A stretch of 64,000 nt of DNA from a virus (lineage: Duplodnaviria > Caudoviricetes): IMG/VR virus record IMGVR_UViG_3300028048_000096, positions 36,767 through 100,766 of that record; one strand, given 5' to 3'. The position numbers were made by a program, and so were the translations under genes. Under the pieces are notes generated by a model that saw only the letters and a list, made by a program, of their open reading frames with translations, was not told where the DNA came from and made no database searches. Shown here piece by piece: positions 51 through 60,173 of this stretch; the first letter of the stretch is position 1; each line of letters starts with the position of its first letter.

Positions 51-560
51 TTAGTCCATCTTATTCATCATTTCTAAGATTGCTTTTCTTGTTTTTTCGT
101 CAGAAGCCGTTTCCATTAATTTTCTTAATTCCTGTTTCATTTCTTCAGGGTCGCTTCCATGCCTACTATATCCATCATTTGTATACATAGGATATATCAT
201 AGGATATCTATATGAATTACCCATATCATAATTCGATGAACCCATGCCGCGGCCGCCTTGTCCACCTTGACCACGGCCGCCCTGTGCGTAGGAATAATCT
301 CCATATGAATTCCAAGGGTCTCTCTGTCCGCCATATGTTCCATCGACATAATATCTACCCATAGAACGTTGACTATATCCACCCATCATCTCTTCTTTTT
401 CTGACTCAAGTTTTTCAATCTTCATTAAATTTTTTAATGAACCAGTTAAACCTTTTAATAACTCCACAGTTGCGGGAGTGTCAATTTCTTTCTTCTTCGC
501 AATACCTTCTAATTCTTTGCACACCATTTCTTGAAGGTCGCGTGAAACATATCTATCCAT
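51..560 (-). CDS. hypothetical protein with Gly/Tyr/Met-rich low-complexity middle (accessory cassette gene 6)
   Basis: 169-aa ORF; AGGAGG RBS upstream; helical ends flanking a YG/GRG-rich region. Confidence 0.8.
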   Translation of the reverse strand: MDRYVSRDLQEMVCKELEGIAKKKEIDTPATVELLKGLTGSLKNLMKIEKLESEKEEMMGGYSQRSMGRYYVDGTYGGQRDPWNSYGDYSYAQGGRGQGGQGGRGMGSSNYDMGNSYRYPMIYPMYTNDGYSRHGSDPEEMKQELRKLMETASDEKTRKAILEMMNKMD

Positions 561-572
561 ACTGAACCTCCT

Positions 573-1007
573 TTATGCTGTTCTTTCGACAATTAAATTG
601 GCATTTTGTACATTAATTGCTTGGTCAGAAGTATTTTCTACTGCTATTGTATAGCAGCATCCTCTGGGAACAGTTATATATAACTCCTCAGCAATATTCC
701 AATAAGAATCAACTACTGTAGGAGTTACAATTGCTGAACTTGTAGGCACTGGTTCACCATCAATTGCTAAAGCAACTGAAATTGGACCAGCAGTACCGTC
801 AGTAGGAACTGCAATATTTCCACCAAAGAAAATTCTATAACGTGCAAAACAACCACAAGAGTTATTAACAATACCGCGCAAAGTCACTATGCCGGAGCCC
901 TCTCTATGGAGTACGTAGCCTCTATTACAAGGAACTGCGGTTTCGGTAAACAAGATATTTTGACCAGCAGCTACTTCTTGAACTGCATTACTTGTAAATT
1001 CCGCCAT
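573..1007 (-). CDS. beta-rich hypothetical protein, possibly BclA-C/TNF-like fold (cassette gene 5)
   Basis: GGAGG RBS at 1016-1020 favours the start MAEFTSN at 1007; alternating beta pattern, Cys pairs; the fold assignment is inference. Confidence 0.7.
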   Translation of the reverse strand: MAEFTSNAVQEVAAGQNILFTETAVPCNRGYVLHREGSGIVTLRGIVNNSCGCFARYRIFFGGNIAVPTDGTAGPISVALAIDGEPVPTSSAIVTPTVVDSYWNIAEELYITVPRGCCYTIAVENTSDQAINVQNANLIVERTA

Positions 1008-1024
1008 TGTTAACACCTCCCTAA

Positions 1025-1792
1025 TTAGAAACTACCACAGCCGCAGCCATAGTTAGTCTGTCCACAGCAATTAGGGTTCTGTACTACATATGCAGGAACA
1101 GGTGTGGGATTCAGATACTGTTCAAGCGCAACCGTCTGAGCCGCATTATCTGCAAGAATTCTTGCGGTCTGTGCGGTCTGTGAAGCCTGCATATTAGCAA
1201 GGTTAATCTGTGTTTGAAGATTTGCGTTTTGAGTTTTAAGTGCATCAATTTCTTGCTGACAAAGTTTATCAATGATTGTTTGGATGCCTGCATTCTGATT
1301 TGCAATGATGTCACGAACGCCATCGCTAACAGCAGCACGGTCTGCGCATGCTTCTCTAGCAATATCTGCACCAAGGTTGGCAAGTCCAAGCCTATTTTCG
1401 CAGCAACAATCTTGGAAATTAGAAGCTAAATTACTCATCATTGCTGTTGTAGCAACCTGATTTGCATTTAAAGTTTGAAGAATGTTTGCCTGAGAATTAC
1501 ATCTTGATACTTCAGCATTAGCAAAACCATTGCCTACTGCAGTTGCAAGATTTCCAAGAGAATTCATAACTGCACTCTGGTCAAATCCTCTCTGAACATC
1601 AGATACTACATAAGTCGCACCATCACCGCTTCCGTTATTTCCGCCAAAACCTCCGCGATTCCAGCCGCCAGCAAAAGCAAATAAGAAAAGAACGATTAAC
1701 CACCAGGCGCCTCCTTCTCCTCCAAATCCATCTCTGCCACCAGTTACAGCAGCGATATCAGATACACTAAGTCCACCATCAGTTAAAGACAT
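1025..1792 (-). CDS. membrane-anchored coiled-coil, Cys-rich hypothetical protein (cassette gene 4)
   Basis: hydrophobic WWLIVLFLFAF between Gly-rich linkers, heptad region, CCC motif, C-terminal CCG..GCGCG; AGGAGG RBS. Confidence 0.8.
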   Translation of the reverse strand: MSLTDGGLSVSDIAAVTGGRDGFGGEGGAWWLIVLFLFAFAGGWNRGGFGGNNGSGDGATYVVSDVQRGFDQSAVMNSLGNLATAVGNGFANAEVSRCNSQANILQTLNANQVATTAMMSNLASNFQDCCCENRLGLANLGADIAREACADRAAVSDGVRDIIANQNAGIQTIIDKLCQQEIDALKTQNANLQTQINLANMQASQTAQTARILADNAAQTVALEQYLNPTPVPAYVVQNPNCCGQTNYGCGCGSF

Positions 1793-1856
1793 TTTATTTT
1801 CCTCCTATAAGATAAAAGATATAACCTATCTCATAGAGAGGATTGGAAATTTATTT

Positions 1857-2454: not shown

Positions 2455-2455
2455 T

Positions 2456-10042: not shown

Positions 10043-11092
10043 ATGTATTTATATATAATAATCTTCCTGCTTCTTGTATTTATATTTTATCTATTTACAA
10101 AAGAAAAGAAAATAAAAGAAGAAAATTCAAGTTTACGCTTAAACCGATTAGAAGATTTAAAGGATTATTTTAGAAAGGAGTGGGAAGAAGAAGAAAATCA
10201 ACTTATTCAAAAGAAAAGGGATAAGTTAAACGCAATTGAAAAAGAATGCTTAACTCATGAGTTTGTAACTAAAGACAAAATCAATAAATTAGATTTTCAA
10301 ATTAAAAGTTTAGAAACTCAATTAGTTGAAAAAGAAAAACGGTATAATGAAGTAAATCAAGATTTAGACTTATATCGAAAGGGTAAAATTGAAGAAATAG
10401 ACGCGGGGCTTATTGAATTAACTCATAAAAAGACAATTTTACTTGAAAATGAATTTAAAGAGAAAAAAGAAAACAAATTAAAAGAATTTGATGACGTAGT
10501 AAATTTCTTACAAACTCAAGAAGCGTCAATGAAAAATGAAATTGAGCAACTTAAGTTAGTATTAGAAGATTATCGTACAAAGCGCGCCGCCATTAATGAA
10601 GAGATTTTACGGCAGAAACAACTCGAAGAACAGCAAGACTTTTATCGAATCCAACTTGACCCTAATGAAATTGGTGATATAGAAATCCTTAGAAATACGG
10701 CCGCGCGCCTTCAACGTCCAGAAATTATTAATAAAATTATATGGTCTGGTTATTATCAGAAACCTCTTGCAGAATTACGTAAGCGACTTCTGCCAAACGG
10801 AGACATAAGCGGAATATATAAAATAACTCGACTTAAAACAAAGGAAATTTATATAGGTCAAAGCACATCATTAGATAAGCGTTGGCAAGAACATACGAAA
10901 TCTGCTTTGGGAGTTGGAACTTTAGCCTCTTCTCAACTTCATCGAGTAATGGCACTAGATGGTCCAGAGAATTTTACCTTTGAAGTCCTTGAAGAGACAC
11001 CTAAAGATAAGCTCCGTGAGCGAGAATCTTATTATATAGATTTTTATGATAGTAAAAACTATGGCCTTAATACAATTAAAGGCGATAAATAA
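10043..11092 (+). CDS. membrane-anchored coiled-coil protein with C-terminal GIY-YIG domain
   Basis: N-terminal hydrophobic helix, ~180-aa coiled coil, GIYKI...IYIGQS..R..EH...E....N. Confidence 0.8.
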   Translation: MYLYIIIFLLLVFIFYLFTKEKKIKEENSSLRLNRLEDLKDYFRKEWEEEENQLIQKKRDKLNAIEKECLTHEFVTKDKINKLDFQIKSLETQLVEKEKRYNEVNQDLDLYRKGKIEEIDAGLIELTHKKTILLENEFKEKKENKLKEFDDVVNFLQTQEASMKNEIEQLKLVLEDYRTKRAAINEEILRQKQLEEQQDFYRIQLDPNEIGDIEILRNTAARLQRPEIINKIIWSGYYQKPLAELRKRLLPNGDISGIYKITRLKTKEIYIGQSTSLDKRWQEHTKSALGVGTLASSQLHRVMALDGPENFTFEVLEETPKDKLRERESYYIDFYDSKNYGLNTIKGDK

Positions 11093-11128
11093 ATAAATAA
11101 CGCGAAAGCGAAGGAGGAAGAACCTTTC

Positions 11129-12190
11129 ATGAATTTAATTCAAGACCAAATTATTCAAACTAAAGAACCTAAAGTATTCGTTAATTCTGCCGCGGCCGCA
11201 GGAAAAACATTCGTACTAACCGAACGTATACGTTATCTTTTAGATAATGGAGTACAACCCGAAGAGATTGTTGCAATTACTTTTACAAATAACGCGGCAT
11301 CAGTAATGTATGAACGTTTAGGGCGGCCGAATGGTTTATTTATCGGAACAGTACATTCATATTGCAATTTTTTGCTTAGGTGTTCAGGAATCGATACAAG
11401 TAATCTTCTTGATGAAGAAAGATTTGACGATTTATTTCCGCTAATCCAAGAGCATCCAGAATGCGTGCGCCATGTGAGTCATTTACTTTTAGATGAAGGA
11501 CAGGATTCAACACAAGAACAATTTGAGTTTTTTGAGCTTATTAATCCTGACAATTTCATGTACTTTTTTGATATTCGTCAAAGCATCTACTCATTTATTG
11601 GTGCGGACCCGCAATATTTAATTAATAAAATAGAAAATGACCCTGATATAGTTGTTTATAATATGGTTCAAAATCATCGTAATTATCGAGAAATTTTACA
11701 GTTTGCGAAGAAATTCTTATATCGACTTGGTCCTTCTTATGCCGATAATTCAGTTCCTACAAGAGGAAGTTCTCAAGGATGTGTATTTGAAGGAGATTAT
11801 ACACCATCTCAAGCAATTGAAATTTTTAAAAAAGTTAACTCCACGCTACAAGATGATTGGAAAGATTGGTTTATTTTGTGTCGTACTAATGCCGATGTTG
11901 AATTATTTGCAACCCTTTTAAATAAAGAAGGAATCCCAAATGATACTTTTAAACAATCGGAATTAACTAATGCAGAAATTGAAGACCGTATGAAAGAGAA
12001 TACAGTTAAAATTTTAACCGTACATAGCGCGAAGGGCATGGAAAATAAGAATGTGTTAGTGTTCAATGTAAGAGCTTACAAAGATGAAGAGGCGCGCATA
12101 TGCTATGTCGCAGCGACACGTGCGAGAGACCATTTAATTTGGATACGGATGCCGAAGAAGAAAAAAGCAAAAATTGTAAATTGGGAATAA
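11129..12190 (+). CDS. minimal UvrD/Rep-family SF1A helicase
   Basis: AAAGKT, ITFTN, GTVHS, LLDEGQD, QSIYSF, TVHSAKGME, YVAATRA; only 353 aa. Confidence 0.85.
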   Translation: MNLIQDQIIQTKEPKVFVNSAAAAGKTFVLTERIRYLLDNGVQPEEIVAITFTNNAASVMYERLGRPNGLFIGTVHSYCNFLLRCSGIDTSNLLDEERFDDLFPLIQEHPECVRHVSHLLLDEGQDSTQEQFEFFELINPDNFMYFFDIRQSIYSFIGADPQYLINKIENDPDIVVYNMVQNHRNYREILQFAKKFLYRLGPSYADNSVPTRGSSQGCVFEGDYTPSQAIEIFKKVNSTLQDDWKDWFILCRTNADVELFATLLNKEGIPNDTFKQSELTNAEIEDRMKENTVKILTVHSAKGMENKNVLVFNVRAYKDEEARICYVAATRARDHLIWIRMPKKKKAKIVNWE

Positions 12191-13411: not shown

Positions 13412-15257
13412 TTCTTATGGAATTGATGATATTAAAAGTTTAAGTTTCCGCGAAGGCGTGCGCGAGCGTATACAAATGTATTTAGGCAGCGATGACCTTG
13501 ATGGAACATATCAGGCTTTTAAAGAAATTATAAATAATGCAACTGATGAAGCAATCGCAGGATTTGGTACAAAAATTGAAATCTACGTCCATGAAAGTGA
13601 TAACTCAATAGATATTCGTGATTATGGGCGCGGCGTTCCTTTTGGAATTCGTGAAGATGGAGAGAATGTTTTAATTTCAATCTATTCTAAATCTCATACG
13701 GGTGGAAAATTTGAAGAAGGTGCATATAAGAATTCAAGCGGTCTTAATGGTATTGGCGCCAAGTGCGTTTGTTTAAGTTCTGACCATTTTCTTGTTCAAA
13801 GTTTTCGTGATGGCAAGGGCGCGGAAGCAAGATTTAAGAAAGGTTTTCTTGAATCTTATGAAGAATTTGATACTGCCGAGCCAAACGGAACTTTTGTTTC
13901 CTTTCAACCTGATCCTGAGGTTTTTAAGAATGGAGAACTTGGTTATTCTTTTGAAAAGATAAGTGAAGATATTAAAAATATATCATATCTTTATAGTGGA
14001 ATAACCTTTGAAATTAAAGGTGAAAAAGGTAAGAAAAATACCTATTGCGCCAAAAATGGAATTGTAGATTTTGTAAAAGACAATATAAAAAGTCCTTTAC
14101 ATAAACATATAATTGTAGGTAAAGCAGAAGATGAAACTGATAAAGTTGAAATTGCATTCCAATGGGGAGATGGAAAAGAAAGCGAGTATGTCTTCGTTAA
14201 TGGCTTGCGTTGTCCAGAAGGTGGTAGTCCTATCACCGGCGCAAAGGGAGCAATTACGCGTACGTTTAATTCGCTCTCAGGGCAAAAATTCGATGGCGAT
14301 AGTATACGTTCAGGTTTGTTCTATGTTATCAACTGTTCCGTGGCGCAACCTTCTTTTGCTAACCAAACGAAGTCAAAAATTAACAACGCTAATTTGCGAA
14401 CTTTGGCTTCAAATGCATTCTCAGACGCACTCAAGCAAATGAGCCTGAGATATAAGGATGAGTTTGATACAATTGTTGAATTGCTTAAAAAGTATGCGAA
14501 GGCTGAGGCCGCTGCAGAAAGAGCAAGACAGAATGTATTAAACGCGGCGCGCGAGATTGAAAAAAATCAAAAGAAAAAGGTTTTTGCAAGTGATAAGCTT
14601 AAGGACGCAGAATTTCTTGGACAAAATTCCACTCTTCTAATTGTCGAAGGTAATAGTGCTATGGGAGGCATGGCGCGAGCTCGTGATTATACTCACTATG
14701 GACTACTCGCAATTAGAGGAAAAATTATCAACTGTTTGTCTAATCCTGAAGAGAAAATTTATAATAATGAAGAGATTAAGCTGCTTTTAAGTGCAATGAA
14801 TATCGTACCTGGGAAGTATAATTCACAAAAATTACGCTATGGAAAGATAGGTATCTGCGTCGACGCTGATTCCGATGGAAGTCATATTGCATTACTTATA
14901 ATGAGTGCGTTACAGTATCTTGCACCGGAATTCATCCGCGAAGGGCGTTTGTGCTGGTTAAGGTCTCCACTCTATATTGTTGAAAACAAGGGAAAAGAAA
15001 GTTATTATTTCACCGATGAAGAATTTAATAAGGTAAGAAATAAGATTAAGGGTGAAGTTACTAGGGCGAAGGGTCTTGGTGAATTATCCGATGAGACCGC
15101 AAGGGCTTCAATGTTTTCAAGTGAATATCAAAGGATGGACGTGTTAGATTGGGATGCAGATGCAGTAAGTTTATTATATGACTTAATGGGCGAAGATGTA
15201 GAGTGCCGTCGAAAATTTATTATGGAAAAGGTAGATTTTACCAAAATACGAGAATAA
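13404..15257 (+). CDS. gyrB: type IIA topoisomerase B subunit (GyrB/ParE)
   Basis: GHKL motifs (EIINNATDE, DYGRGVP, GGKF, GLNGIG); Toprim EGNSA, IRGK, DADSDG, KGLGE. Confidence 0.92.
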   Translation: MSNSYGIDDIKSLSFREGVRERIQMYLGSDDLDGTYQAFKEIINNATDEAIAGFGTKIEIYVHESDNSIDIRDYGRGVPFGIREDGENVLISIYSKSHTGGKFEEGAYKNSSGLNGIGAKCVCLSSDHFLVQSFRDGKGAEARFKKGFLESYEEFDTAEPNGTFVSFQPDPEVFKNGELGYSFEKISEDIKNISYLYSGITFEIKGEKGKKNTYCAKNGIVDFVKDNIKSPLHKHIIVGKAEDETDKVEIAFQWGDGKESEYVFVNGLRCPEGGSPITGAKGAITRTFNSLSGQKFDGDSIRSGLFYVINCSVAQPSFANQTKSKINNANLRTLASNAFSDALKQMSLRYKDEFDTIVELLKKYAKAEAAAERARQNVLNAAREIEKNQKKKVFASDKLKDAEFLGQNSTLLIVEGNSAMGGMARARDYTHYGLLAIRGKIINCLSNPEEKIYNNEEIKLLLSAMNIVPGKYNSQKLRYGKIGICVDADSDGSHIALLIMSALQYLAPEFIREGRLCWLRSPLYIVENKGKESYYFTDEEFNKVRNKIKGEVTRAKGLGELSDETARASMFSSEYQRMDVLDWDADAVSLLYDLMGEDVECRRKFIMEKVDFTKIRE

Positions 15258-15258
15258 T

Positions 15259-15981
15259 ATGAAACTAATTGATTTAACTGGTAAAACTTTCGGTAATTTA
15301 ACTGTTATTGAGAGAGATTGGGAATATCAAAAGAAAAACAACTATGAAAAACCATATTGGAAGTGTCATTGCTCTTGTGGGAAAATTGTTTCAGTTTTAG
15401 GGAAAAGTCTACGAGAAGGTACACAAGTTAGTTGTGGGTGCCTAGCCAAGCAAAGAGCTAAACAATTAAATTTTAAAGATATTACTAATCAGCGATTCGG
15501 TAAGCTGACAGCTTTAAAATATGTTGGAAATTCTAAGTGGGAATGTCAATGTGATTGTGGTTTTAAATGTGTGGTTGCTACTGGTCATTTAACCTCTGGT
15601 CACACCACATCATGTGGTTGTTTGCGTTCTAAAGGAGAGTCGATAATTTCTCAATGGCTAGATACAAATAACTATCTTTATAAAAAACAATATACAAATC
15701 AATTATTGAGAAATAATAAAGGTAATATATTGAAAATTGATTTTGCTATTTTAAATAGTCAAAATCAACCAATAGGTTTTATTGAATATAATGGTAAACA
15801 ACATTATGATATTAATGATGCTTGGTATAAACCAGAAGTAGAAGAGGGATTAATAATAAAGGAGCAATATGCTTACAAAAACAATATTCCTTTTATTATT
15901 ATCTCTTATCAAGATGATATTATTAGTACATTAGAAAATTTTATTTTGAAGAAAGTTGATTTTAGTAAGGTAAGAGAATAA
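15259..15981 (+). mobile_element. free-standing homing-endonuclease-like gene (2 Cys-rich repeats + PD-(D/E)XK-like domain)
   Basis: DLTG..FG.LTV...WKCHCSCG...SCGC x2, then KIDF...IEYNGKQHY; sits between gyrB and gyrA. Confidence 0.8.
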
Positions 15982-23946: not shown

Positions 23947-24988
23947 TTATCAGGGTATTATAGAACAATTAGATACAGATAAAGTAATTCAACTAATGGA
24001 AACATTAGGTGTTGATTCATATGTGCGGCGACCCGGTCATGTTATCTTTCCTACCATCTGTCATAATGAAGATGCTAGTGAAGCTTCAATGAAGCTGTAT
24101 TATTATGAAAACAACCATATTTTTTATTGCTACACTAATTGTCAAAGTATGTCAATCTTCAAATTCCTCAAGCACTATTACGAATGTCGAAACCTATCGT
24201 ATGACTGGTATGAGGATATTTATAAGGTCGTACTTGATTGCAGTAATTTTCGGCTGGCCGCGCCTGGACAATCGACTTATAAGTCAATTCGTGAACAATA
24301 TAGACGTCCAGAACAAGTTAAGCTTCCCACGTATCCCGAAGGTATTTTACAAACCTTCACAAAATTTTATCCACCTGAATGGTTAAATGATGGAATTAGT
24401 AAATCTGCGATGGATAAGTTTAATATATTATATTCAATCCCACAGAATAAAATTATAATTCCACATTATAATATAGATAATGAGTTGGTTGGAGTGCGCG
24501 GCCGAGCCTTAAATGAGTGGGAAGTTGAAAATGTGGGTAAATACATGCCGGTTCAAATTGAAGGTAAATGGTATAGTCATCCGTTATCTCTTAATTTATA
24601 TGGACTTAATAAAACAAAAGAGAATATAAAAGAAACTGGTGTATGTTTTATCTTTGAAGCAGAAAAATCAGTTTTACAGATGGATAGTTTTGACCGTCCT
24701 AATTGCGCGGCCGCCGTATGCGGAAGTCAATTTAATAAGTTTGCACTTAAAATTCTTGTTCAAAATTGCCATCCAAATGAAATTGTAATTTGCTTCGATA
24801 AAGAAGAGAAACCAAAAGAAGATATATATTTTAATAAGTTATATAAACTATGTAGTAAATATAAAAATTATGCAAACTTTTCTTTTATTTATGATATGGA
24901 GAACTTACTTGAACTAAAAGACTCTCCAACGGATAAAGGACAAGATACTTTTGAACGACTTTTAAATAAAAGGGTAAGGGTAAAATGA
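23939..24988 (+). CDS. DNA primase (DnaG-like, Zn + Toprim)
   Basis: CHN..CYTNC, IIIPH, VRGR, LYGLN, FEAEKS, CFDKE, KDSP.D. Confidence 0.85.
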   Translation: MIDYQGIIEQLDTDKVIQLMETLGVDSYVRRPGHVIFPTICHNEDASEASMKLYYYENNHIFYCYTNCQSMSIFKFLKHYYECRNLSYDWYEDIYKVVLDCSNFRLAAPGQSTYKSIREQYRRPEQVKLPTYPEGILQTFTKFYPPEWLNDGISKSAMDKFNILYSIPQNKIIIPHYNIDNELVGVRGRALNEWEVENVGKYMPVQIEGKWYSHPLSLNLYGLNKTKENIKETGVCFIFEAEKSVLQMDSFDRPNCAAAVCGSQFNKFALKILVQNCHPNEIVICFDKEEKPKEDIYFNKLYKLCSKYKNYANFSFIYDMENLLELKDSPTDKGQDTFERLLNKRVRVK

Positions 24989-27555: not shown

Positions 27556-28545
27556 ATGGAACAAAAATATATAATAGAATATAAGGGTAAATCAATTAAT
27601 ACAAAAAATTGGTTACCAGTTACAGAAGAAGAATTAGAGCAGTATAGAAACGAATATTATCAAAAACCCACTCTGCAAACTGTTCAAAAGCAGATGAAGA
27701 AAATTACAACTGATGGAGTAATGATAGATAAAATCACTCGTTATTATTTTAGAGATTTAATGGCACAAACTCAGTTAAGTACAGCAAAATGGACAGTTGA
27801 AGATGTATTTAATAGTACTGATTTGTGTGGAATATTTAAAGCAAAAGTAGTAAATAGTCCAAAAGTTTTTAAACCTGAGGTTTCAATGGGTTATAATATT
27901 GAACGAGCTATTGCTTTAGGTGGGAAAGGATATGCTAAAATTCCCACACAGTTTCCTTTCCAAGCTGTACAACATATAATGTCTAATTATAATGTTAATA
28001 ATTCTGTATATGACTTCTCTTGTGGTTGGGGCTCTAGATTACTTGGTGCGTTAAAATATAATATCAATTATTATGGAACAGACCCTAATTATAAATTATG
28101 TGAAAGATTATTAGAACTAACCGCAAATTACAAACAAATCATAAAGCGTGATAACATAGTTGATATTCGTTCTATTGGTAGTGAAATTTTTATTCCAGAG
28201 TGGGAAAATAAAATGGGTTTATGTTTCAGTAGCCCGCCATATTTTTCATTAGAAGATTATAAATATGGAAAACAAAGCTGGAATCCTAACGTAAGCTATG
28301 AACAATGGTTAAATAACTATTTATATCCAACTTTAAATAATACTATCAAATATTTAATTAATGGTGGTATTTTAGCTATTAATATTAAAGATACCAATGT
28401 TCCAATTGCCACCGATACAAATAAATATTTAGAAAGTAGATTAAAATATTTAGATACAATTCCCTTAAAAAATATTAAAAGATTAAAAAGTACAGGTGGT
28501 TTAACCGATACCACTGATGAAGGCATCTATATATATAAAAAATAG
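27556..28545 (+). CDS. orphan amino (N4-C/N6-A) DNA methyltransferase
   Basis: motif I DFSCGWG precedes motif IV SSPPYF; no cognate REase adjacent. Confidence 0.8.
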   Translation: MEQKYIIEYKGKSINTKNWLPVTEEELEQYRNEYYQKPTLQTVQKQMKKITTDGVMIDKITRYYFRDLMAQTQLSTAKWTVEDVFNSTDLCGIFKAKVVNSPKVFKPEVSMGYNIERAIALGGKGYAKIPTQFPFQAVQHIMSNYNVNNSVYDFSCGWGSRLLGALKYNINYYGTDPNYKLCERLLELTANYKQIIKRDNIVDIRSIGSEIFIPEWENKMGLCFSSPPYFSLEDYKYGKQSWNPNVSYEQWLNNYLYPTLNNTIKYLINGGILAINIKDTNVPIATDTNKYLESRLKYLDTIPLKNIKRLKSTGGLTDTTDEGIYIYKK

Positions 28546-28826: not shown

Positions 28827-31800
28827 ATGGAAAAATTAAAATTTCCAGGTTCGCTGCATAATCACACAGACTTTAGTAATTTTCGTCTTAGGGACTCAAT
28901 TAATACAGTTGAGTCTCTAGTTGACTATGCCGTCGAACTTGGACAAGAAGTAGTAGCGATTACCGAGCACGACACAATCGCATCACATATTCGTGCAGAA
29001 AAATATTATAAGAAAATTAAAGAGAAAAATCCGAATTTTAAAGTAATTCTTGGAAATGAGATTTATCTTGTAAGAAATGGATTGAATTCAGATAATTTTG
29101 ATAAAGATAAAGATAGATATTTCCATTTTATTTTACTTGCTAAAGATGAAATTGGACATAAGCAAATCCGTGAGATTTCAACTCGTGCATGGATGAGGAG
29201 TTATGTCGCGCGCCGCATGAGAAGAGTTCCAACTTATTATAATGATTTAATTGAAGTAATTGGTAAAAATCCAGGTCATGTAATAGGTTCAACCGCATGT
29301 TTGGGTGGATGTTTACCGACTCAGTTAATTAGAAATAGAGATAATAGCGCGCCATCAATGGATTTAATTAAAAGATGGATTTTACAGTTGCAAGGAATTT
29401 TCGGTAAAGAAGATTTCTATTTTGAAATGCAACCATCGTTTAATAAAGACCAGATTTATGTAAATCATAAATTAGTTGAATTAAGTGAAGAATTGGGAAT
29501 AAAATATATAATTACAAATGACGCACATTATTTGAAGAAAGAAGATAGACCAATTCATAAAGCTTTTCTTAATTCACAACAGGGTGATAGAGAAGTTGAT
29601 GATTTCTATGCCACAACTTATCTTATGAATACAGAAGAAATTGAATCTTATATGTTAAAAGAAATGGGAGAGGAAGTTCTTCAAAAAGCATATAGGACAA
29701 TTTTAGAGATTAAAGATAAATGTCAAGATTATTCTTTAATGAAGCCATTAAAGATTCCGAGATTAAATTGGAAAAGTTATAATCACTTAGCAAATGGTAT
29801 TTGGTTTGAACGAATCCCTATGTTAGAAAAGTTTGTAAATTCTTCTTACGAATCAGATAAACATTTAGCTCATGCAATAGTAGATAGAATTTATGATTCT
29901 CCTGACCTTCAAAATAAAGAAGTATATGATGAGGTCAACGCGTGTCTTGAAGATACATGGATTAGTTCTGAAGTAAATGGAAGTAGATGGAGTGCATATT
30001 TCTTAAATCTTCAAAATATAATTGACTCATGTTGGGATGCAGGAACATTAGTAGGATGCGGCCGTGGGTCTGGTGTAGGATTTATCTTATTATATTTGTT
30101 AGGTATAACACAGATTAATCCGTTAAGAGAAAAGAGCCAGACAAAGCGCTGGAGATTCTTGAATCCAGAGCGTGTATCTGTTCTAGATGTAGATATTGAT
30201 ATTGAAGGCGGCCGCAGAGCAGAAGTTTTAAAGAACTTTCGTCGTATTTATGGAGAAGATAGAGTTGCGAATGTATTAACTTTAAAAACCGAGAAGTCAA
30301 AATCAGCAATTCTTACCGCGGCGCGTGGTTTAGGAATCGATGTTGATACGGCGCAATATTTATCTTCATTTATTGAGGCGGATAGAGGACAATTAAGAAC
30401 TCTGAAACAAACTTTTTATGGTGATTCTGAAAACGGAATAAGTGCTTCAAAGCAATTTAGAATTGAAATGGAGGAAAATTATCCTGAACTATGGAAGGTT
30501 GCACAAGGAATTGAAGGATTAATAAATGGCTGTGGTATTCATGCAGGTGGAGTTATTTTTGTAGATGAACCTTTTACAAACTCGACCGCATTAATGCGGG
30601 CTCCAAGTGGAGAAATTATAACTCAATTCGACCTCCATGCCGCAGAGGATACTGGATTAATTAAATACGATATTCTTTCAGTTGAAGCATTAGATAAAAT
30701 TCATAATTGTCTTGATTTAATTTGTGATTATGGATATGAGCAAAGAGAGAATACTTTAAGAGAAACTTATGAAAAAATCATTGGAATTTATAAATTAGAA
30801 CGTGAAGCTCCCGAAATGTGGAAAATGTGTTGGGAGCATAAAGTTCAAAGTTTATTCCAAATGGAAAAGCAATCTGGTATTAGTGGAATTGCAGCGATGA
30901 AACCGACTTCAGTAGACGACTTAGCAATTCTTAATTCTGCGATTAGGTTAATGGCAACTGAAAAAGGCGGAGAAATGCCAGTTAATAAACTTGCAAGATT
31001 TAAAGCGCATCCAGGTGATTGGGATAGAGAACTTCAAAAATATGGACTCGGTGAAGAAGCAAAGAAAATTCTTGAACCAGTTTTAGGAGTTTCATATGGA
31101 TTGTGTATTGCACAAGAACAATTCATGCAATTGGTTCAGCTTCCAGAACTTGGTGGTTTTAATCTAACTTGGGCAGATAAGTTAAGAAAGTCAATTGCAA
31201 AGAAAAATCCCGCAGAATATGATAAATTAACTGAAGAATATTTTAAGACAATTAAAGAAAAAGGTTTAGATGAAAAACTTTGTGATTATACTTGGAATAT
31301 ATTAATTGCAATGAGTAAAGGTTATGGTTTTAACTTATCTCATACGTTAGCATATTCATTAATTGGACTTCAAGAACTTAATCTTGCATATAGATATCCG
31401 TTAATTCTTTGGGATTGCGCTTGTTTAATAACTGATAGCGGCGGTGCAGAAAAAGAGTCCGAAGAAGAAGAATCAAGCAATACTGTTGAAGAAATTTATA
31501 ATGATAATATAGGAAATTTTGAAGAAGTAGAAGAAGAAGATGAAGAAGAAAACGAAGAAGAAGAAGGAAATGAGACAACCACTTCTAAAAAGAAAACCAA
31601 TAGAACTGTAAACTATGGAAAAATTGCAACAGCTATTGGTAAAATGAAAAGTGCAGGAATCAAAATAATCGCAACTGATATAAATAAATCTTCATATACA
31701 TTTTCACCAGATGTAGAGAATAATTTAATTATTTATGGATTAAGTGGTATTACAAGAGTCGGTGAAGATTTAGTTAAAGAAATTATAAATAATCGTCCGT

Positions 31801-34151: not shown

Positions 34152-36341
34152 ATGCAATACATTAAAAAAAGAGATGGTAGATTAGTTGAATTTAATAGAA
34201 TTAAAATCGTTGATGCCATCTTAAAAGCTTTCAAAGAAGTAGACGGAACTGCAAGTGATTATGCTTTAGAGAAAGCAAACAATATCGCTACTTTTATCGA
34301 AAATAAAAGTAAAAACAAAATCTTAACTGTAGAAGAAATTCAAGACCTTGTAGAACAAGGTTTAATGTCAACCAAAAGAAAAGATGTAGCAAGAGCATAT
34401 ATTGCTTATCGTATCGAAAGAACTCGTATCCGTAATTGGAATACGCAAATGATGAATCAAGTCGCAGTTAAACTCGCGGCAAGTGATGTACAAAATCAGA
34501 ATGCGAATGTTGATGAATATTCATTCGGCGGCCGCAGAGGTGAAGCTGATTCAGTTATCTTTAAGCAATATGCCCTTGATAACTTAGTTTCCGAAATGGC
34601 TCGTAACAATCACTTAAATAATGAAATTTATATTCATGATTTAGACAGTTATATTTTAGGTATGCATAATTGTCTTACCATTCCTTTTGATAAATTATTA
34701 GCAGAGGGATTTAATACAAGACAAACTGATGTGCGCCCAGCTAATTCAGTTAATACTGCATTCCAATTAGTGGCTGTATTATTCCAATTGCAATCTTTAC
34801 AACAGTTTGGTGGAGTAAGCGCAAGCCATTTAGATTGGACAATGGTTCCTTATGTGCGTAAGTCTTTCTTAAAACATTTTAAAGATGGGGTTAAATATTT
34901 AGAAGAACATCATTTTGATGGCGAACCTATATCAATTGAAGATGAAGTTTATAAATCTCATCCTGCTGCATACAGATATGCAATGGATATGACAATTAAA
35001 GAAATTCAACAAGCGGTAGAAGGCATGTATCATAACCTTAATACTCTTCAGAGTAGAAGCGGTAATCAACTTCCCTTCACTTCAATTAATTACGGTACTT
35101 GTACACTACCTGAAGGCCGCATGATTATTAGAGCTTTACTTCAAGGCTCAATTAAAGGCGTCGGCAAACTTCATAAAACTCCAATTTTTCCTTGTGGAAT
35201 TTTCCAATATATGAAAGGAGTTAATGATAAGCCCGGCACGCCGAATTATGACTTATTCCAACTGGCTCTTGAATCAACCGCAAAGCGTTTATATCCAAAT
35301 TATGCTAACGTAGATTGGAGTGGTAATGCGGGATACGATAGAAATGACCCAAAGACCTACTTCAGTACAATGGGATGCCGCACGGCAAATGGCTTTGATA
35401 TTAATGGCTTTGGTCAACTTAAAGATGGCCGTGGAAATATTTGTCCAGTAACTATAATCCTTCCTACGCTTGCGATGGAGGCTAAGGAATCACTCCATGA
35501 AGATGATGATATAGTTGAAGCTTTTATGGATTTACTTGACGAGAAAATCTTTGAAGCGAAAGATATGTTACTTGAACGCTTTGAATATATTTGTTCTCAA
35601 AATCCTGAGTCTGCTAAATTCATGTATGAAAATGGTACAATGGAGGGATATATTCCCGAAGAGGGAATTCGCTCCGCACTTAAACATGGTACAATTGTTA
35701 TTGGCCAATTAGGTTTAGCGGAAACATTACAAATATTAATTGGCTGTGACCATACAACTGAAAAAGGAATGGAACTTGCAAAGCGCATTGAACAGTTATT
35801 TAAAGATAGATGTGCAGAATTTAAACAACGTTATAAATTAAACTTCGGCGTATATTATACGCCCGCAGAAAATTTATGCTATACGGCAATGAAAAAATTT
35901 AAAGCAAAATATGGAAACATCCCCAATATAAGCGACCGTGAGTATTTTACCAATTCAATGCATGTCCCAGTTTGGAAAGAAATTTCTCCTTTTGATAAAA
36001 TAGATATTGAAAGCCAATTAACTGGTTATTCAAGTGCTGGTTGTATTACTTATGTTGAATTAGAGGGTGCGATACTTAAAAATCTTTCGGCCCTGGAGCA
36101 GATAGTTACTTATGCGATGGAAAAAGATATACCATACTTTGCAATTAATGTGCCTAATGATACTTGTCTTGAGTGTGGTTGGACAGGAGAAATTGCAAAT
36201 GAATGCCCAGAATGTGGCTCAACAAATATACAAAGACTTAGAAGAGTTACGGGATATTTAACGGGCAATTATACAACAGCATTTAATTATGGAAAACAAA
36301 AAGAGGTTGAAGACAGATATAAACATTCGAGGAAGTTATGA
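34152..36341 (+). CDS. nrdD: anaerobic (class III) ribonucleotide reductase
   Basis: ATP cone (IKKRDG), IYIHD, HNC, TMGCRT, TPAENL, CxxC/CxxC, RRVTGYL glycyl-radical loop. Confidence 0.95.
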   Translation: MQYIKKRDGRLVEFNRIKIVDAILKAFKEVDGTASDYALEKANNIATFIENKSKNKILTVEEIQDLVEQGLMSTKRKDVARAYIAYRIERTRIRNWNTQMMNQVAVKLAASDVQNQNANVDEYSFGGRRGEADSVIFKQYALDNLVSEMARNNHLNNEIYIHDLDSYILGMHNCLTIPFDKLLAEGFNTRQTDVRPANSVNTAFQLVAVLFQLQSLQQFGGVSASHLDWTMVPYVRKSFLKHFKDGVKYLEEHHFDGEPISIEDEVYKSHPAAYRYAMDMTIKEIQQAVEGMYHNLNTLQSRSGNQLPFTSINYGTCTLPEGRMIIRALLQGSIKGVGKLHKTPIFPCGIFQYMKGVNDKPGTPNYDLFQLALESTAKRLYPNYANVDWSGNAGYDRNDPKTYFSTMGCRTANGFDINGFGQLKDGRGNICPVTIILPTLAMEAKESLHEDDDIVEAFMDLLDEKIFEAKDMLLERFEYICSQNPESAKFMYENGTMEGYIPEEGIRSALKHGTIVIGQLGLAETLQILIGCDHTTEKGMELAKRIEQLFKDRCAEFKQRYKLNFGVYYTPAENLCYTAMKKFKAKYGNIPNISDREYFTNSMHVPVWKEISPFDKIDIESQLTGYSSAGCITYVELEGAILKNLSALEQIVTYAMEKDIPYFAINVPNDTCLECGWTGEIANECPECGSTNIQRLRRVTGYLTGNYTTAFNYGKQKEVEDRYKHSRKL

Positions 36342-36901: not shown

Positions 36902-37398
36902 GATATAATACAATACTTGCTAATGATGTAGTAAACGGAGAAGGAGTTTGCGTCTCCTTCTTCGTGCAAGGCTGCCCACACCGATGCGAAGGATGTTTTA
37001 ATCCTGAAACGTGGGATTTTGCAGGCGGCCGCGAGTATACATCAGACATAAAATGGGAAATTATAAAACTAATTAGCGCAAATAATATTCAAAGAAACTT
37101 TTCAGTACTTGGTGGGGAGCCGATGTCTATGCGGAATTTAGAAATGACTGATGAAGTTATATCTGCGGTACGCGTAGCTTATCCTGATATTAAAATATTT
37201 TTGTGGACTGGATTTTTCTTATTCGACCTTATAGACTTAAACGATGAGCATGTCAATTCTATTCTTTCTAAGGTAGATTATGTAATTGATGGACCTTTTG
37301 ATGAAAAATTAAAAGATTTAAGTTTAAAATTGCGCGGTAGCTCTAACCAAAGAATATGGACAAAAATAAATAATAATTGGGTAGAACAAGATGGATAA
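36898..37398 (+). CDS. nrdG: anaerobic RNR activase (radical SAM)
   Basis: NGEG, GCPHRCEGCFN, LGGEP, IDGPF, RGSSNQ. Confidence 0.93.
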   Translation: MRYNTILANDVVNGEGVCVSFFVQGCPHRCEGCFNPETWDFAGGREYTSDIKWEIIKLISANNIQRNFSVLGGEPMSMRNLEMTDEVISAVRVAYPDIKIFLWTGFFLFDLIDLNDEHVNSILSKVDYVIDGPFDEKLKDLSLKLRGSSNQRIWTKINNNWVEQDG

Positions 37399-39755: not shown

Positions 39756-39760
39756 AATAA

Positions 39761-40693
39761 ATGCAAAAACTAATTGATGAAACGGGCAATAAGTATGGTT
39801 TATTAACTGTTATTGAACCCACAAGAGATAAAAATAACCGGGCGGCATGGCTATGTAAGTGCGAATGCGGGAATACAAAAATAGTTCGCGGTTCGGATTT
39901 ACGAGAAGGAAAAATTACAAGTTGCGGCCGGGGATGTAAGCTTCGCTATCAACGTAGTGGAGTTTTTAAAGATGAAACAGGAAATCAATATGGACGTTTA
40001 ACCGTTTTATACCGCGCACCGTATAAAAAAAATGATAATAAAGTGTTATGGCATTGCCACTGTTCTTGTGGTAATGAATGTGACGTAAGAGGTGCTGATT
40101 TACGTAGTGGAAAAATTGTTTCATGTGGATGTTATAGTGCAGAACAAGCTTCTAATTTACAATTCAAAGATGAGACTGGACATCAATATGGATATCTTAC
40201 TGTTTTATCATTAGTTAAAAAATCACCAGAAGCAATTTGGCTTTGTAAATGTAAATGTGGTAATTTAAAAGAAGTAAGTGGTCAAATGCTTCGTAATGGA
40301 AATACAAAATCATGTGGCTGTTTAAAATCTTGGTATGAAGAAGAAATTGCTGCTATTTTAAATAATAATAATGTAAATTATAGTCGCGAAGTAAGCTTTT
40401 TTGACTTAATAAGTGATACAAAACATAAATTACGTTTTGACTTTGGTATTTATGATGAAAAAAATCAATTAAAAGGACTTATTGAGTATCAAGGTAAGCA
40501 ACATTTTGAACCCATTAATGGATGGGGAGGCCAAGAAGGCTTTGAACGACTTCAAAAGCATGATAATATGAAAAAGGAATATTGCAAACAAAAAGGTATT
40601 CCATTGCTTATTCTTGATAAAAATAATAATTTAGGAGAAGATGTTATGATATATATAACAAAGATTTTTGGAGGTATTTGGGATGCCGAATGA
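39761..40693 (+). mobile_element. free-standing homing-endonuclease-like gene (3 Cys-rich repeats + PD-(D/E)XK-like domain)
   Basis: DETG..YG.LTV..W.C.C.CG..L..G...SCG x3; LRFDF..IEYQGKQHF. Confidence 0.8.
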
Positions 40694-42786: not shown

Positions 42787-45700
42787 TTATCTAAAGTTCC
42801 GAACTGCAGTTACGTTTCTATAAGTTGCATCTTTTACAATATCTCGTTTAATTCTTGCAGTTAATCTATCAACGTCATAATCACTTGCAATCTTTTCAAC
42901 ATTTACATTTATATTAAATTCAGTTGGTGAATTATATATATTTGATGTATCAGTATGAGAAATCGTACGCATAACACCAGAAAGTATATCTTTTAATGCA
43001 ATAAAGTTCTTTGTATCTTGAGCATTTAATACAAGTTCAGGTTTAGCTCTCGTACCATCAAGCCAAGCGGGTCCGGTTGTCTTATTCAAACCACCGCGCG
43101 CATATTTTGGAAACTTTTTATGTGTTGCATTTCCTGTATTAGGTCCCCAAATGCCATCTTGTGTTGTTCCTACGGCTTTTTGTAACTGTACAATCGCTGC
43201 AGTTGTCTTTGGACCAATTATTCCATCAATCACCAAATCCGCACCAAAATTACCAATTAACTTATCCTTTTTTAAGTCATTTAAGCCTTGTTGCAAAGCT
43301 TTCTTTTGAGCAGAACTGAAAGTATTTTGATGCGCGGCCGGCACACCAGCAAGCCTTCCATGAGCATTCGGACTAGTATTCGCAGCTCCACCACCAGAAC
43401 TTCCACCTGATGAACCTCCAGACGAACCAGAGCCAGCAGAACCAGTAGTTGGAATACCATCATTAGTTGGATTATATACGCCTGGTGTATTGGGATTGTT
43501 TTGACCTTGACCAATAGTAGTGCCTACTACTTCCATCATATCTTGGTCAAGTTGAATTAAGGCGTTGTATAAATCTTGTTGTTGACTAATAGCCTCTTCT
43601 AAATAAGGAATTGCAGCACTTGCATTACCAGCTTCGATAATCTGTCTTTCAATTTCATTCTTATCAATTAATTGTTCCCATTTGCCACGACCCAGCTCTT
43701 TAGTTTCATCTAAAAGCAAAGCGATTTGAGTTGCGTTAGCCTTAATATCATCAAGTAACTCATCAGCCATCGCAGCATAAACACCAGCTTGCTTATTATA
43801 TTCAATCTGTTGTTTTGCGAGGTCGATTTGCTGTTGACGTTGTTTCGAAGCTTCATCAGCCTGCGTCTGCATTTGCGCAAGCATTTGGTCTTCAAGTGTA
43901 CGACCATAGGAACGTTGAGCATCGCCAATTTCTTTTTCTAATTGAGCAATTTCAACTTGGTTGCCACCACCAGTATTTGCACGCAATATAGAAAGTCGTT
44001 CTTGTTTTCGTGCGATATCAGCTTCGGTTTTTGCATTGTCTTCTGCTTTGCGTCTTGCATCAATACTCTTTTTAACTTGTTCAAGTACTGACTTGGCCGC
44101 GTTAGTAAGTGAAGAATTTAATGATTCTAATTTGCTGACCTCTTTCTGTGCTGCATCAACAAAAGCATCAATAAGGTCGTTTTCAAGGTCAGCCATAGTC
44201 TTATAATAATCGTCTAATTGCTCACCTAATTCTTTTAAATAATCCTGAACTTCACTAATTGCTTCGTGATAATCAATTTGACCCTCAACAAGATTATCAA
44301 AACCATCTTTAATAGCGTTATATGTATCTTCACTAATTTTTCCAGCTAACCTATCTGCTTCAAGTTGCTCTTCATTGAAATCAAAAGTATAACTTCCATC
44401 TGCATTTTGTGTAGAAGTCACATACAATTGACCCCAGGCCGCCCTTGCATATTCGTCATACGCCGCGGCCTCGCGTGCGAGCATTTCAGCAGTAAGCGCC
44501 TGTCCATTTTTCAGTGCGGCTTCATTCTCAGCCTTAATAGCTTCATAACGTTCTTTTTCTGCTGAGCCGCCATCCATTAAAGCTTCAATCTCTTCCTGTC
44601 TAGCTTGAATCATTGCATATAATAGTTCAAGTCTTTGCTTGGTTAATTCTATGCTACCTTGTTGAGCATTATTTAAATGGTCAAGCACAGTCGCCATATC
44701 TTCGAACTGAGTATTCACTGAAGACAAGAGCAAGCCAATTTCTGACGTAAAGCGACCATTCATTGCTTCATTTAATTCAAGTTGTTTAGACAGGTCATAA
44801 ACTCTTGTAAGTTCATTCTCCCAACCATAGAAGGCCTCTCTAACTTGATTAACTAAGTCTTTAAGTTTTTGTTGAGCATCTTCTATTGCTTTGGCCGCAG
44901 AGTTAAAACTGGACTGTAAATTTGAAATTTGTTGATTTAATAAGTTGAATAAAGACTCTGCATTAGCAGTTAAATTCTCTCCACCATATCCATTGGCTTG
45001 TAAGTATTTAACAATAGCATCATAGCTTACTGAGTAACCTGTATCTGCATTTCCGCTAATAAATTGCGAAGTACCAACTGAAATTTCTTCAGATTCATTA
45101 CTTGCATTCGTAAGGCTAACCCACAATTGACGATTGCCATTAGCGAGCCATTCGAGTTCAGCCTTGTAAGAGTCACGAAGTTGTTGTTGCTGTGCGATGG
45201 TTTGATGAAGCAGTTGAGTTTGTTTTTCTACATCTTTAGAAATATCAGAGTACTTAACGCCAAGCTTTGCAAGTGTGTCGCTAATTGATTTGGTGATTTT
45301 TTCAATCTTTTCAGTTAATTGATTAATTGACTGATTAAGATTGAAGCGACGAACTTCTTCTTTGTACCAATTTGAGTGTTTAGGGTCTTTTTCTTTATCA
45401 CTTGAAGAAGATTTTGACCCCGAGCTACTTCCAGAACTAGAGCCTCTAGAACCACCAGATGAGCCGCTTGAATAATCATAATGACCAGCATGAGAACCGG
45501 CAGGAATAGATTTCTGCTTAATGATGTCTTTAGATTGCTCATGAGAGTATACAACGGCATCGCTAGGCAAATTAAGCATCTGTGGTCCATGTGCACCGAG
45601 AATCATAGAGCGATTTTCACTTGGTAACCAAGCAATTTCAAACCCCTTCTCACCAGTAAGAGTTAATCCTCCTTTATTCTTGGGACCAACTGTACCATAA

Positions 45701-57086: not shown

Positions 57087-57095
57087 TAAACCTAA

Positions 57096-58157: not shown

Positions 58158-58179
58158 TTCTAAATCTCCTCCTTTTCTC

Positions 58180-58770
58180 TTATGCAGTCAGAACCTGGAA
58201 TTTAATACCAAATGAACCATCCGGCATAGTTGTGGCTTCAACAACCCTGAGTACCGGGCCAGCAGAAGGCTTAGTAGCACTTACTGCAATCGCACCCTCA
58301 TCACTAACACCACCATAGAGCGGAGTAGTATCAACATCTTCACAAGCTTCAATGAAGTTCTCATCAGCTGTTTTTGCAGAGGCGCCAGAACCAGTAGCGG
58401 TCCACTCTGTGTCATCATAACCAACGCAGTTAGTTGTGAAGAGCTCACCTACAGAAAGGAATCCAAGTCTAGGAAGGAAGGTTCCTCTTTCAAGTTTGAA
58501 GTCCTTAAGTGAATTTGCTCTTTCGTCATACATATGTTCTGTAGTATAGTTAAGTGCAACAGGGCAAGTAGCTATAACAGCGCTCTTAGGGAACTTAACT
58601 GTTCTGTTGACTCTATCTACAGCAAGCAGCATTCCATTTTCAGCAGGAACGGAAGCGAAATCAGTTGCATCAAGAGCGCACTGAGCTTCGATTCTACCAT
58701 CTCTGCGGAAGGCTACCTGATTTAATTCTAATTGACCAAAACCGTCAATTGTCATTCTTTTAAAAGCCAT
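58180..58770 (-). CDS. capsid decoration/minor head protein
   Basis: AENGMLL, GELFTTN; position between scaffold and MCP. Confidence 0.6.
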   Translation of the reverse strand: MAFKRMTIDGFGQLELNQVAFRRDGRIEAQCALDATDFASVPAENGMLLAVDRVNRTVKFPKSAVIATCPVALNYTTEHMYDERANSLKDFKLERGTFLPRLGFLSVGELFTTNCVGYDDTEWTATGSGASAKTADENFIEACEDVDTTPLYGGVSDEGAIAVSATKPSAGPVLRVVEATTMPDGSFGIKFQVLTA

Positions 58771-58784
58771 ATTTTCTTCCTCCG

Positions 58785-60173
58785 TTATTTTTTATATCTA
58801 CTAAGAATTTCCACAATTCCACCCTCATGGGCGTCATCTTTAGGAACGAAGTTAGGAACTTTTTCTTCAGTAGTAAAAATGGCTGGTTTGCTTTGTACTA
58901 ATACAAAAGCAAGTTCTTTTTCTAAACTTTCTTCAGTATAATTGTCAAGTCCCTCTCTGAAGGTGTCAATTACCTCATTTCCAAGTTGGACGGAATACTT
59001 AGTCAGAATTGCTTCTTTCTTTGCAAGTTCCGCGGCCGCCTTGTACGAAGATAACTGCTCATTCTCCTGAGTTAACTCGTCAATTTTAGCTAAAGAATTT
59101 TCGTTCTCTGTCTTAATTGTATTATAAAGCTCTGCAGCTTCTTCATTTTCCTTTTTTAAAGTAGCAATAGTTGTATTGCACTCTTCAATTTTGCTGTCAG
59201 ATTCTGTAATTTTGTCTTCAAGACCAATTACATATTCATCAACATGTTCATAAGAATTGTTGCGAATAGAATGAAGCATATCTAATGCTCTCTTTTCCTC
59301 TTCATTTACATCAATAATATAAGCGGTTTCTTTTCTATCAAGAGCAACAGAATCTGTTTCATCATCTTTTGTATAATATACTCTTTCATATCCATTTTTA
59401 GCATAGTTGAAGGCTAAAGCATATTCATCATATACCTCACAAACTGAGTATTCCATTTCCCAGCCGCCTTCTTCATTGCAATTAGGATTGAGAAGAGTCC
59501 AAATCATATTTAACTTCTGATTATCGGAAAGTTTAAACTCCATCTGTTCTCCTCCTAATTGTGATTCGTTTGAGGCCAATTTGAATTGCTCAAACTCTTC
59601 GATGGTGTTTTTAATTGACTCACAGAACGTATAGAATGCCGCGCCTTCAAAACAAGGCTCATAATCATCCCCTAATGCCTGTAATCCTAAAAAACGTCCC
59701 TCTTTAAAAACAAAATATCTTTTACCATTAATAAATTGCCACTCTCCGTCTATCGAGTCAGCATATAACTCCATAGACTGTGCTTTATCTACAATCTGTA
59801 ATGCTTCTTGCTTATAGATTCCAGTAAAGAGATACACATCAGCGCACGCATACATACGTTCTACGCCATCTTCATCAAGATGAGTCTCCCAAGCAAAGTT
59901 AGGATTTTCTGGCACGATACCATAAATGCGACCCTCATACCTCTGTTTGCCATGGTCAGTAAAATCATCTTCCATCGAATCGTAGATTCCTTTTACTGGG
60001 GTATAAGGTAAAGTTGCAATTAATTTCTCTGCGAACTCATCGGTTATAAAGGTGCCATTTCTGTTCGCGCCTTTGTAGAAGATACGACAACGTGCCTGAG
60101 ACAGGACTTCATTATATGCGGTAATGTTGCCATAAACAGATAGAGAGAAACTAGTCATTTGTTCTTTATTCAT
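58785..60173 (-). CDS. prohead protease-scaffold fusion
   Basis: NRNG, H, QSMEL, LG...EPCFEGA protease-like N-terminal half; acidic coiled-coil C-terminal half. Confidence 0.75.
   Translation of the reverse strand: MNKEQMTSFSLSVYGNITAYNEVLSQARCRIFYKGANRNGTFITDEFAEKLIATLPYTPVKGIYDSMEDDFTDHGKQRYEGRIYGIVPENPNFAWETHLDEDGVERMYACADVYLFTGIYKQEALQIVDKAQSMELYADSIDGEWQFINGKRYFVFKEGRFLGLQALGDDYEPCFEGAAFYTFCESIKNTIEEFEQFKLASNESQLGGEQMEFKLSDNQKLNMIWTLLNPNCNEEGGWEMEYSVCEVYDEYALAFNYAKNGYERVYYTKDDETDSVALDRKETAYIIDVNEEEKRALDMLHSIRNNSYEHVDEYVIGLEDKITESDSKIEECNTTIATLKKENEEAAELYNTIKTENENSLAKIDELTQENEQLSSYKAAAELAKKEAILTKYSVQLGNEVIDTFREGLDNYTEESLEKELAFVLVQSKPAIFTTEEKVPNFVPKDDAHEGGIVEILSRYKK

Follow-up and report, generated by a model that had tools for sequence, protein, structure and literature searches.

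The 64,000-nucleotide window analysed here (bases 36767-100766 of the 100,766-bp Caudoviricetes record IMGVR_UViG_3300028048_000096) contains many more copies of the NotI palindrome GCGGCCGC than shuffled versions of the same sequence. These NotI sites are the most visible product of a clade-wide filling of short segments with G and C, and not a specific recognition site. We regard them as probable by-products of a weak, context-dependent and clade-specific fixation bias toward G/C, a force on the DNA duplex that would build G/C-only tracts of 7-14 bp in this group of phages. The pattern, its dependence on sequence context and its distribution over the clade hold independently of the methyltransferase gene at 27556, codon usage and restriction-site avoidance. 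The genome carrying the window (G000) was compared with four complete relatives (G001-G004), giving five phage genomes; relatives of G000 stem from rumen and gut metagenomes, and the closest cultured phage is distant, with a top portal protein identity of 29%. The G/C content is 35.1% in the window and 35.2% in the whole record, to be compared with the value of about 33% that an initial annotation had estimated by eye.

That annotation had reported seven GCGGCCGC sites, spelled in two codon frames, and all of them are present: those at 249, 30208, 34528 and 37025 encode Gly-Gly-Arg, and those at 11192, 24707 and 59032 encode Ala-Ala-Ala (Table 1). Their excess is beyond doubt, since dinucleotide shuffles yield 0.14 +/- 0.35 sites (maximum 1), and the whole 100.8-kb record holds 12 sites against about 0.1 expected. 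The near-matches listed with them are G/C-only runs at 6577, 10698, 17291, 22895, 24496, 43332 and 44461. It is also correct that GC-ending codons are otherwise avoided, the overall G/C fraction at third codon positions (GC3) being 0.24. When synonymous codons were shuffled within genes over the whole record, 0.86 +/- 0.85 coding NotI sites were obtained (maximum 3), compared with 11 observed; the enrichment therefore does not vanish under the null model that the annotation had itself named as its refuting test.

The enrichment extends well beyond the octamer. On both strands of the record, GCGGCCGC is seen 24 times where its 7-mers predict 28.9 (maximal-order Markov model), and the words GGCCGC, GCGCGC, CGGCCG, GCGGCC and CGCGCG each exceed the synonymous null 5-6-fold; no enrichment over this null was found for GGGGGG, CCCCCC, GGGCCC or GCCGGC. 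The window contains 61 G/C-only runs of at least 8 nt, 23 of them at least 10 nt long, where a first-order Markov model gives 14.0 +/- 3.9 runs of at least 8 nt, and under the same model GCGCGC (25 versus 3.0) and CGGCCG (20 versus 2.3) are similarly abundant. Synonymous shuffling of the record gives the same picture, with 87 runs of at least 8 nt versus 24.4 +/- 4.3 and 35 of at least 10 nt versus 5. The length distribution of G/C runs is geometric up to 5 nt and heavy-tailed beyond, reaching 14 nt, and A/T runs show no excess. The proposal of a DNA signal beyond codon usage thus stands insofar as the words occupy several frames and are strand-symmetric; its other parts, a single iterated palindrome of the HIP1 kind and a tie to a methyltransferase, are not borne out, since the 7-mers predict the octamer count, other G/C-only words are equally enriched and relatives differ in their dominant word.

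The likeness to the cyanobacterial palindrome HIP1 (GCGATCGC) is nonetheless real: both are G/C-rich palindromic octamers found many-fold over expectation within genes and in several frames, and neither has an established function (PMC5861425). HIP1 is one specific word that stands far above its variants and has been discussed together with cognate methylases (PMC5861425). Here, unlike HIP1, the sub-words predict the octamer, a whole class of G/C words is enriched, conservation of the sites is lacking, and G000-G004 yielded no methylase to match. Another precedent is very-short-patch (VSP) repair. In E. coli, Dcm/Vsr repair at CCWGG needs a C5-cytosine methyltransferase and Vsr and acts on one site. 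It shares with the present case a repair-driven fixation bias that lifts word abundance genome-wide with no site-specific function, and differs in that neither of its two enzymes was found here and that our effect follows G/C run length.

An origin of this type would require a cytosine methyltransferase on GCGGCCGC, CGGCCG or GCGCGC, possibly the one encoded at 27556, together with T:G mismatch repair that regenerates the site. The enriched words are indeed classic 5-methylcytosine methylase sites, the dominant words vary between lineages, and G000 does carry an orphan methyltransferase. However, that enzyme, to which the initial annotation had tentatively tied the palindromes, is of the N6/N4 type. 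Its gene is intact, and motif I precedes motif IV (SPPY), an order owing to which Pfam PF01555 matches only piecewise; SPPY is frequent in N4-cytosine methylases. It is present in G000 alone and absent from G001-G004, which show an equal or stronger effect, and it therefore does not explain a clade-wide phenomenon. Searches of the phage genomes only, in which control genomes gave matches, detected neither a C5-methyltransferase (PF00145) nor Vsr (PF03852) in G000-G004, and no ThyA-type gene was found in the five genomes. Since the octamer is also no more frequent than its sub-words predict, its sites are not conserved and the effect is graded by G/C run length and not tied to one word, this origin is already largely refuted and we hold it to be very improbable. 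Uracil- or hydroxymethyl-base DNA with unrepaired deamination was likewise rejected as a candidate: a dUTPase is encoded, a ThyA homologue is lacking in the five genomes, and the base-specific pattern described below does not fit.

The property that unites the enriched words is their local context. At four-fold degenerate sites of G000, the longer the two flanking G/C runs are in total, the higher is the G/C fraction, which goes from 0.19 (0-2 nt) through 0.22 (3-4), 0.36 (5-6) and 0.60 (7-8) to 0.67 (9 or more), and reaches 0.8-0.9 where both flanks are at least 4 nt long; tables by left and right flank show the same climb across G000-G004. Third positions of neighbouring codons are coupled with an odds ratio of 1.84 if both intervening bases are G/C and of 1.10-1.15 otherwise. 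This coupling requires contiguous G/C, all three phases are used and the pattern is reverse-complement symmetric, so that it belongs to the duplex and is not translational; clustering of rare codons for translational reasons was rejected on these grounds. The choice between G and C is also context-dependent. In long G/C contexts, a site between two Cs takes G in 60% of cases and C in 9%, and a site between two Gs takes C in 57% and G in 3%, so that the chosen base creates CG or GC steps (CGC, GCG), and CCC and GGG are avoided.

The tracts are spaced in a Poisson-like manner (coefficient of variation 0.96), with an even density along the genome that is alike in coding and non-coding DNA. Their G:C ratio on the coding strand is 432:381, and words show much the same enrichment as their reverse complements. 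The many words involved and the lack of strand bias do not correspond to a single oriented word of the Chi or uptake-sequence type. Chi and DNA uptake sequences each consist of one oriented word for which a reader protein is known, and uptake sequences accumulate by molecular drive. They have in common with the tracts that dispersed short words are over-represented without positional conservation, and differ in that many words are involved in these phages, neither orientation is favoured and a reader is not known. Clustering of Ala, Gly, Pro and Arg at the protein level was rejected as a cause, as it amounts to 1.0-1.16-fold at most; the effect itself hardly changes the composition of the proteins. 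Pairing of tracts into hairpins was rejected because close tract pairs show no excess.

We also considered that the tracts might be a by-product of restriction-site avoidance, in which the removal of targets containing A/T (GATC, GCWGC, CAGCT, CCGG and others) pushes synonymous choices toward G/C. Avoidance is certainly strong in G000: GATC is depleted 10-fold (21 versus 210 under the synonymous null), GACC, its expected replacement, is enriched 1.8-fold, and CCGG (0.5-fold), TCGA (0.66-fold), GCAGC (0.48-fold) and CAGCT (0.33-fold) are all scarce. An extreme shuffle that forced the avoided words from 2642 down to 471 lifted NotI to about 5 and runs of at least 8 nt to about 45, but it over-minimised these words and was discarded as a test. 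With 16 words held at their observed counts, runs of at least 8 nt reach 27.5 against 87 observed, NotI sites 1.75 against 11 and GCGCGC 7.4 against 39. Moreover, relatives that show no GCWGC depletion have a stronger effect, and we give this explanation hardly any credence. The relatives avoid other words (ACGT, 11 versus 320 in G004; TCGA, 91 versus 432 in G003), and these differences point to lineage-specific restriction pressure.

The rise of G/C with context is present in G001-G004, in many rumen contigs and in one human-gut cluster, and the climb at four-fold sites of G001, G002 and the human-gut cluster is similar to that of G000. In the group resembling phAss-1 (PMC10607447) the effect is weaker. 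Control sequences give either a flat curve or one of the opposite direction. The curve is flat in AT-rich bacterial loci (0.26-0.29 throughout), from which G/C tracts are nearly absent, and no effect was seen in Bacillus phage SPbeta, in the other contigs of the metagenome-assembled genome (MAG) G005 or in Thomasclavelia phage TR-TP2, which has no run of at least 7 nt in 50 kb. All carriers of the effect belong to a single uncultured clade of SPbeta-like phages from gut and rumen; the window itself encodes structural proteins of the SPbeta-type YonB, YonD, YonG, YomW and YomU families. Within this clade the preferred words differ by lineage: G001 has 183 copies of GCGCGC, no NotI site and few GGCC-centred words, and G002 has 28 NotI sites. 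Such differences are most simply explained by lineage-specific avoidance superimposed on a shared tendency.

Conservation of the sites in relatives was assessed against L003, which is 85% identical to G000 at the nucleotide level across 12.4 kb, and no excess over background was found: identity is 84.8% within tracts and 85.3% overall. Eight of the 17 G000 tracts compared are intact in L003, 2-3 differ at one site and 7 at two or more, mostly at two third positions together and with no indels; the tract at 59030..59040, for instance, reads GGCTGCCGCAG in L003 owing to two third-position changes. Substitutions between A/T (W) and G/C (S) were then analysed at the four-fold sites of seventeen close pairs, assuming stationarity. 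The S/W divergence is 0.077-0.097 in G/C context against a baseline of 0.058, so turnover is not reduced, and the rates implied in G/C context relative to baseline are 2.1-2.3-fold for q(W>S) and 0.53-0.79-fold for q(S>W). Such values are the mark not of site conservation but of a fixation bias that is directional and weak, its scaled coefficient being about 1-1.5. Yeast mitochondrial GC clusters, which are mobile insertions of 30-40 bp located mostly in non-coding DNA, are likewise short G/C-rich islands in a very AT-rich genome; the present tracts differ from them in being 7-14 nt long, in frame and made by substitution.

We therefore propose that neighbouring G/C would be supplied by the protein sequence, through runs of Ala, Gly, Arg and Pro codons, and that the synonymous positions between them would preferentially become G or C, with W-to-S changes fixed about twice as often and S-to-W changes about 0.5-0.8 times as often in such contexts. 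GCGGCCGC would appear because Ala-Ala-Ala and Gly-Gly-Arg can be spelled in this way, and because the bias is weak and does not conserve sites, tracts would be born and lost continually at random places. The bias may arise from GC-biased correction or gene conversion of mismatches lying in stable G/C context during recombination-dependent phage replication. We tentatively consider such repair or conversion the likeliest source, with selection for the tracts nearly as likely. The genome does encode a recombination-related set comprising a Sak4-type AAA_24 protein, RecJ, a UvrD-like helicase, RuvC and a ligase. Classical GC-biased gene conversion is independent of neighbouring bases and raises GC over kilobase tracts. 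As here, its W-to-S advantage mimics weak selection, in that gains go up and losses down with no positional conservation; unlike here, it would not leave a baseline GC3 of 0.19 with only positions inside G/C runs affected.

Selection for the tracts themselves is a possible, if somewhat doubtful, alternative, in which short, maximally stable stretches of G/C would serve an AT-rich phage chromosome as generic structural signals, each with a small additive benefit wherever coding permits. Possible roles include barriers to melting or branch migration, nucleation of strand annealing, and a self-marker akin to Chi that host DNA seldom contains. In its favour are the choice of CG and GC steps, the most strongly stacked ones, in preference to GG and CC, the growth of the effect with neighbouring run length up to 5 or more bases away, and the all-or-none differences between G000 and L003. 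A gain of about 2-fold with a loss of about 0.5-fold also fits a single scaled selection coefficient of about 1.2, and because AT-rich bacterial loci have almost no such tracts, these would set phage DNA apart from DNA resembling that of a host. On the other hand, positional conservation, regular spacing and strand or orientation bias are all lacking, full G/C occupancy is reached in just 22-34% of permissive tripeptides, the analysis turned up no candidate for a reader protein, and phage-encoded gyrase fails to separate strong- from weak-effect clades, as the weak-effect clade carries gyrase too. Purine-pyrimidine alternation is not consistently carried into the flanks and alternating tracts end at 7-8 nt, which speaks against Z-DNA. 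We think it rather unlikely that the tracts are a selected, sequence-degenerate and genome-wide mark of a new kind read through duplex stability, one that would limit strand opening or the progress of nucleases and helicases, or would flag self versus host DNA. Its logic would be analogous to that of Chi, with the mark defined by stacking energy and not by a fixed word.

A pure context-dependent mutation spectrum, produced either by shielding of tract cytosines from deamination or by an error signature of the PolC-like replicase, would be compatible with the Poisson-like dispersal, with the independence from frame and strand and with the equal behaviour of coding and non-coding DNA. The effect is, furthermore, specific to a clade with its own replication genes, and the S/W differences in G/C context are chiefly transitions. 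But shielding predicts slower S-to-W change only, whereas W-to-S change is about 2-fold faster in context; it also predicts an equal rise of C and G, whereas only the base that makes a CG or GC step rises and CCC and GGG stay at 3-9%. Together with the failure of AT-rich bacteria and TR-TP2 to show anything similar, this makes a purely mutational origin improbable.

Several points weigh against a fixation bias caused by repair or conversion. That bases 4-6 nt away have an influence and that close relatives differ in an all-or-none way would fit selection on whole tracts equally well or better. The substitution rates are drawn from 92 S/W differences in G/C context under the stationarity assumption and do not distinguish biased conversion from either weak selection or a context-dependent mutation spectrum; sequence alone does not decide among the three. 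No clade-specific mismatch-repair or glycosylase gene was recognised. A host-encoded process is excluded solely by analogy with the AT-rich Firmicutes used as controls. Finally, the gene calls are crude open reading frame (ORF) calls, and the codon statistics of G001 and G002 come from a subset of genes because of in-frame TAG codons.

A context-dependent G/C-tract effect of this kind was not found described in the literature searched. It illustrates that an excess of "restriction-site palindromes" can reflect a graded compositional force, in this case one that raises the share of G/C at synonymous positions from about 0.2 to about 0.7, and this bears on how over-represented phage words are read. 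If biased repair or conversion is the source, these phages would allow such drives to be studied in viruses in a clean natural setting; if selection is, the tracts would constitute an unrecognised DNA signal encoded in stability. In either case they are usable as a compositional fingerprint of the clade in metagenomes and for phage contigs that have been mis-binned.

Table 1. G/C-only tracts and other features of the window (window positions)
Feature	Position	Strand	Remarks
Tract GCCGCGGCCGCC	246..257	minus	NotI site 249-256 inside; codes GGRG
Tract GCCGCGGCCGC	11189..11199	plus	NotI site 11192-11199 inside; codes AAAA; UvrD-like helicase gene
Tract GCGCGGCCGCCG	24705..24716		NotI site 24707-24714 inside; codes C-A-A-A-V; primase-like gene
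Tract GGCGGCCGC	30207..30215		NotI site 30208-30215 inside; codes GGR; PolC-like DNA polymerase gene
Tract CGGCGGCCGC	34526..34535		NotI site 34528-34535 inside; codes F-G-G-R; nrdD
Tract GGCGGCCGCG	37024..37033		NotI site 37025-37032 inside; codes GGRE; nrdG-like gene
Tract CCGCGGCCGCC	59030..59040	minus	NotI site 59032-59039 inside; codes K-A-A-A-E
Tract CGGCCGCGCGCC	10698..10709		12 nt; example with no NotI site
Tract CGCGGCGCGCG	14543..14553		11 nt; GyrB-like gene; example of alternating CG/GC type
Tract GCGCGGCCGGC	43332..43342	minus	11 nt; gene for 3028-aa tail protein
Tract GCGCCGCGGCC	62970..62980		11 nt; no called ORF; tracts thus also occur in non-coding DNA
Orphan N6/N4-type DNA methyltransferase gene	27556..28545	plus	Motif I DFSCGWGS, motif IV SPPY; judged to lie outside the phenomenon
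Regions with homing-type nuclease genes and the free-standing 240-aa ORF	10043-12190, 15259-15981, 20028-20852, 24985-25803, 38296-40693

The replication and nucleotide metabolism genes of the window encode a PolC-like polymerase, GyrB-like and GyrA-like topoisomerase subunits, NrdD and NrdG, a DnaB-like helicase, a primase and a dUTPase; RecJ, RuvC and several homing endonucleases are also encoded. The gyrB-like gene is separated from the gyrA-like gene by a free-standing ORF of 240 aa. Homing-type nucleases are unusually dense, with three GIY-YIG proteins, one LAGLIDADG protein and two proteins combining a zinc ribbon with DUF2726. A GIY-YIG gene and that of the UvrD-like helicase lie side by side and are conserved in G000-G004; G013 has the helicase as well. 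As a repair module this pair was rejected and remains a weak lead, the nuclease domain being of the I-TevI homing type and the phage-like region of G005 having no such helicase. Homologues of the GIY-YIG protein in G001 and G002 (loci L072-L084), and also in G010, contain 4-9 in-frame TAG codons, and those in G000, G003 and G004 contain none. This suggests TAG recoding in G001, G002 and G010, as described for phAss-1 (PMC10607447).

With regard to the host, a scan with nrdD returned mainly MAG contigs that are themselves phage-like. The 181-kb contig C1 of G005 (loci L178-L186), binned in a 'Mollicutes' MAG, carries two adjacent SPbeta-like regions, and its portal homologues lie at 112.9 kb and 142.6 kb. 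Its stretch from about 10 to 125 kb is syntenic with G000, has 0-1 GATC per 10 kb and shows an excess of GCGC and CGCG; the remainder (125-181 kb) shows neither the GATC scarcity nor this excess. The contig does not clearly represent a prophage within host DNA and may be a chimeric assembly or two prophages in tandem; no other portal match was found among 399 genomes of the same class. The phage endolysin (record positions 34946-36001; L199:14946-16001, minus strand) has C39-like peptidase, SH3 and PG_binding_1 domains, a set that implies a Gram-positive host with a cell wall, as opposed to a mollicute lacking one.

For polarising substitutions, the only near-identical contigs of the phage share 99.99-100% identity with it. 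One of these, the ENA contig L195 (1-4157; 99.994% identical), runs about 4.2 kb past the end of the record, and the record, rated 86% complete by CheckV, is therefore truncated at the right edge of the window. In G001, at about 91-102 kb (loci L076-L077), the motif GCCCGGGCG(CC) is present in about 10 copies, 0.3-1.4 kb apart, in stretches with no called ORFs, and may be a repeated RNA or terminator element.

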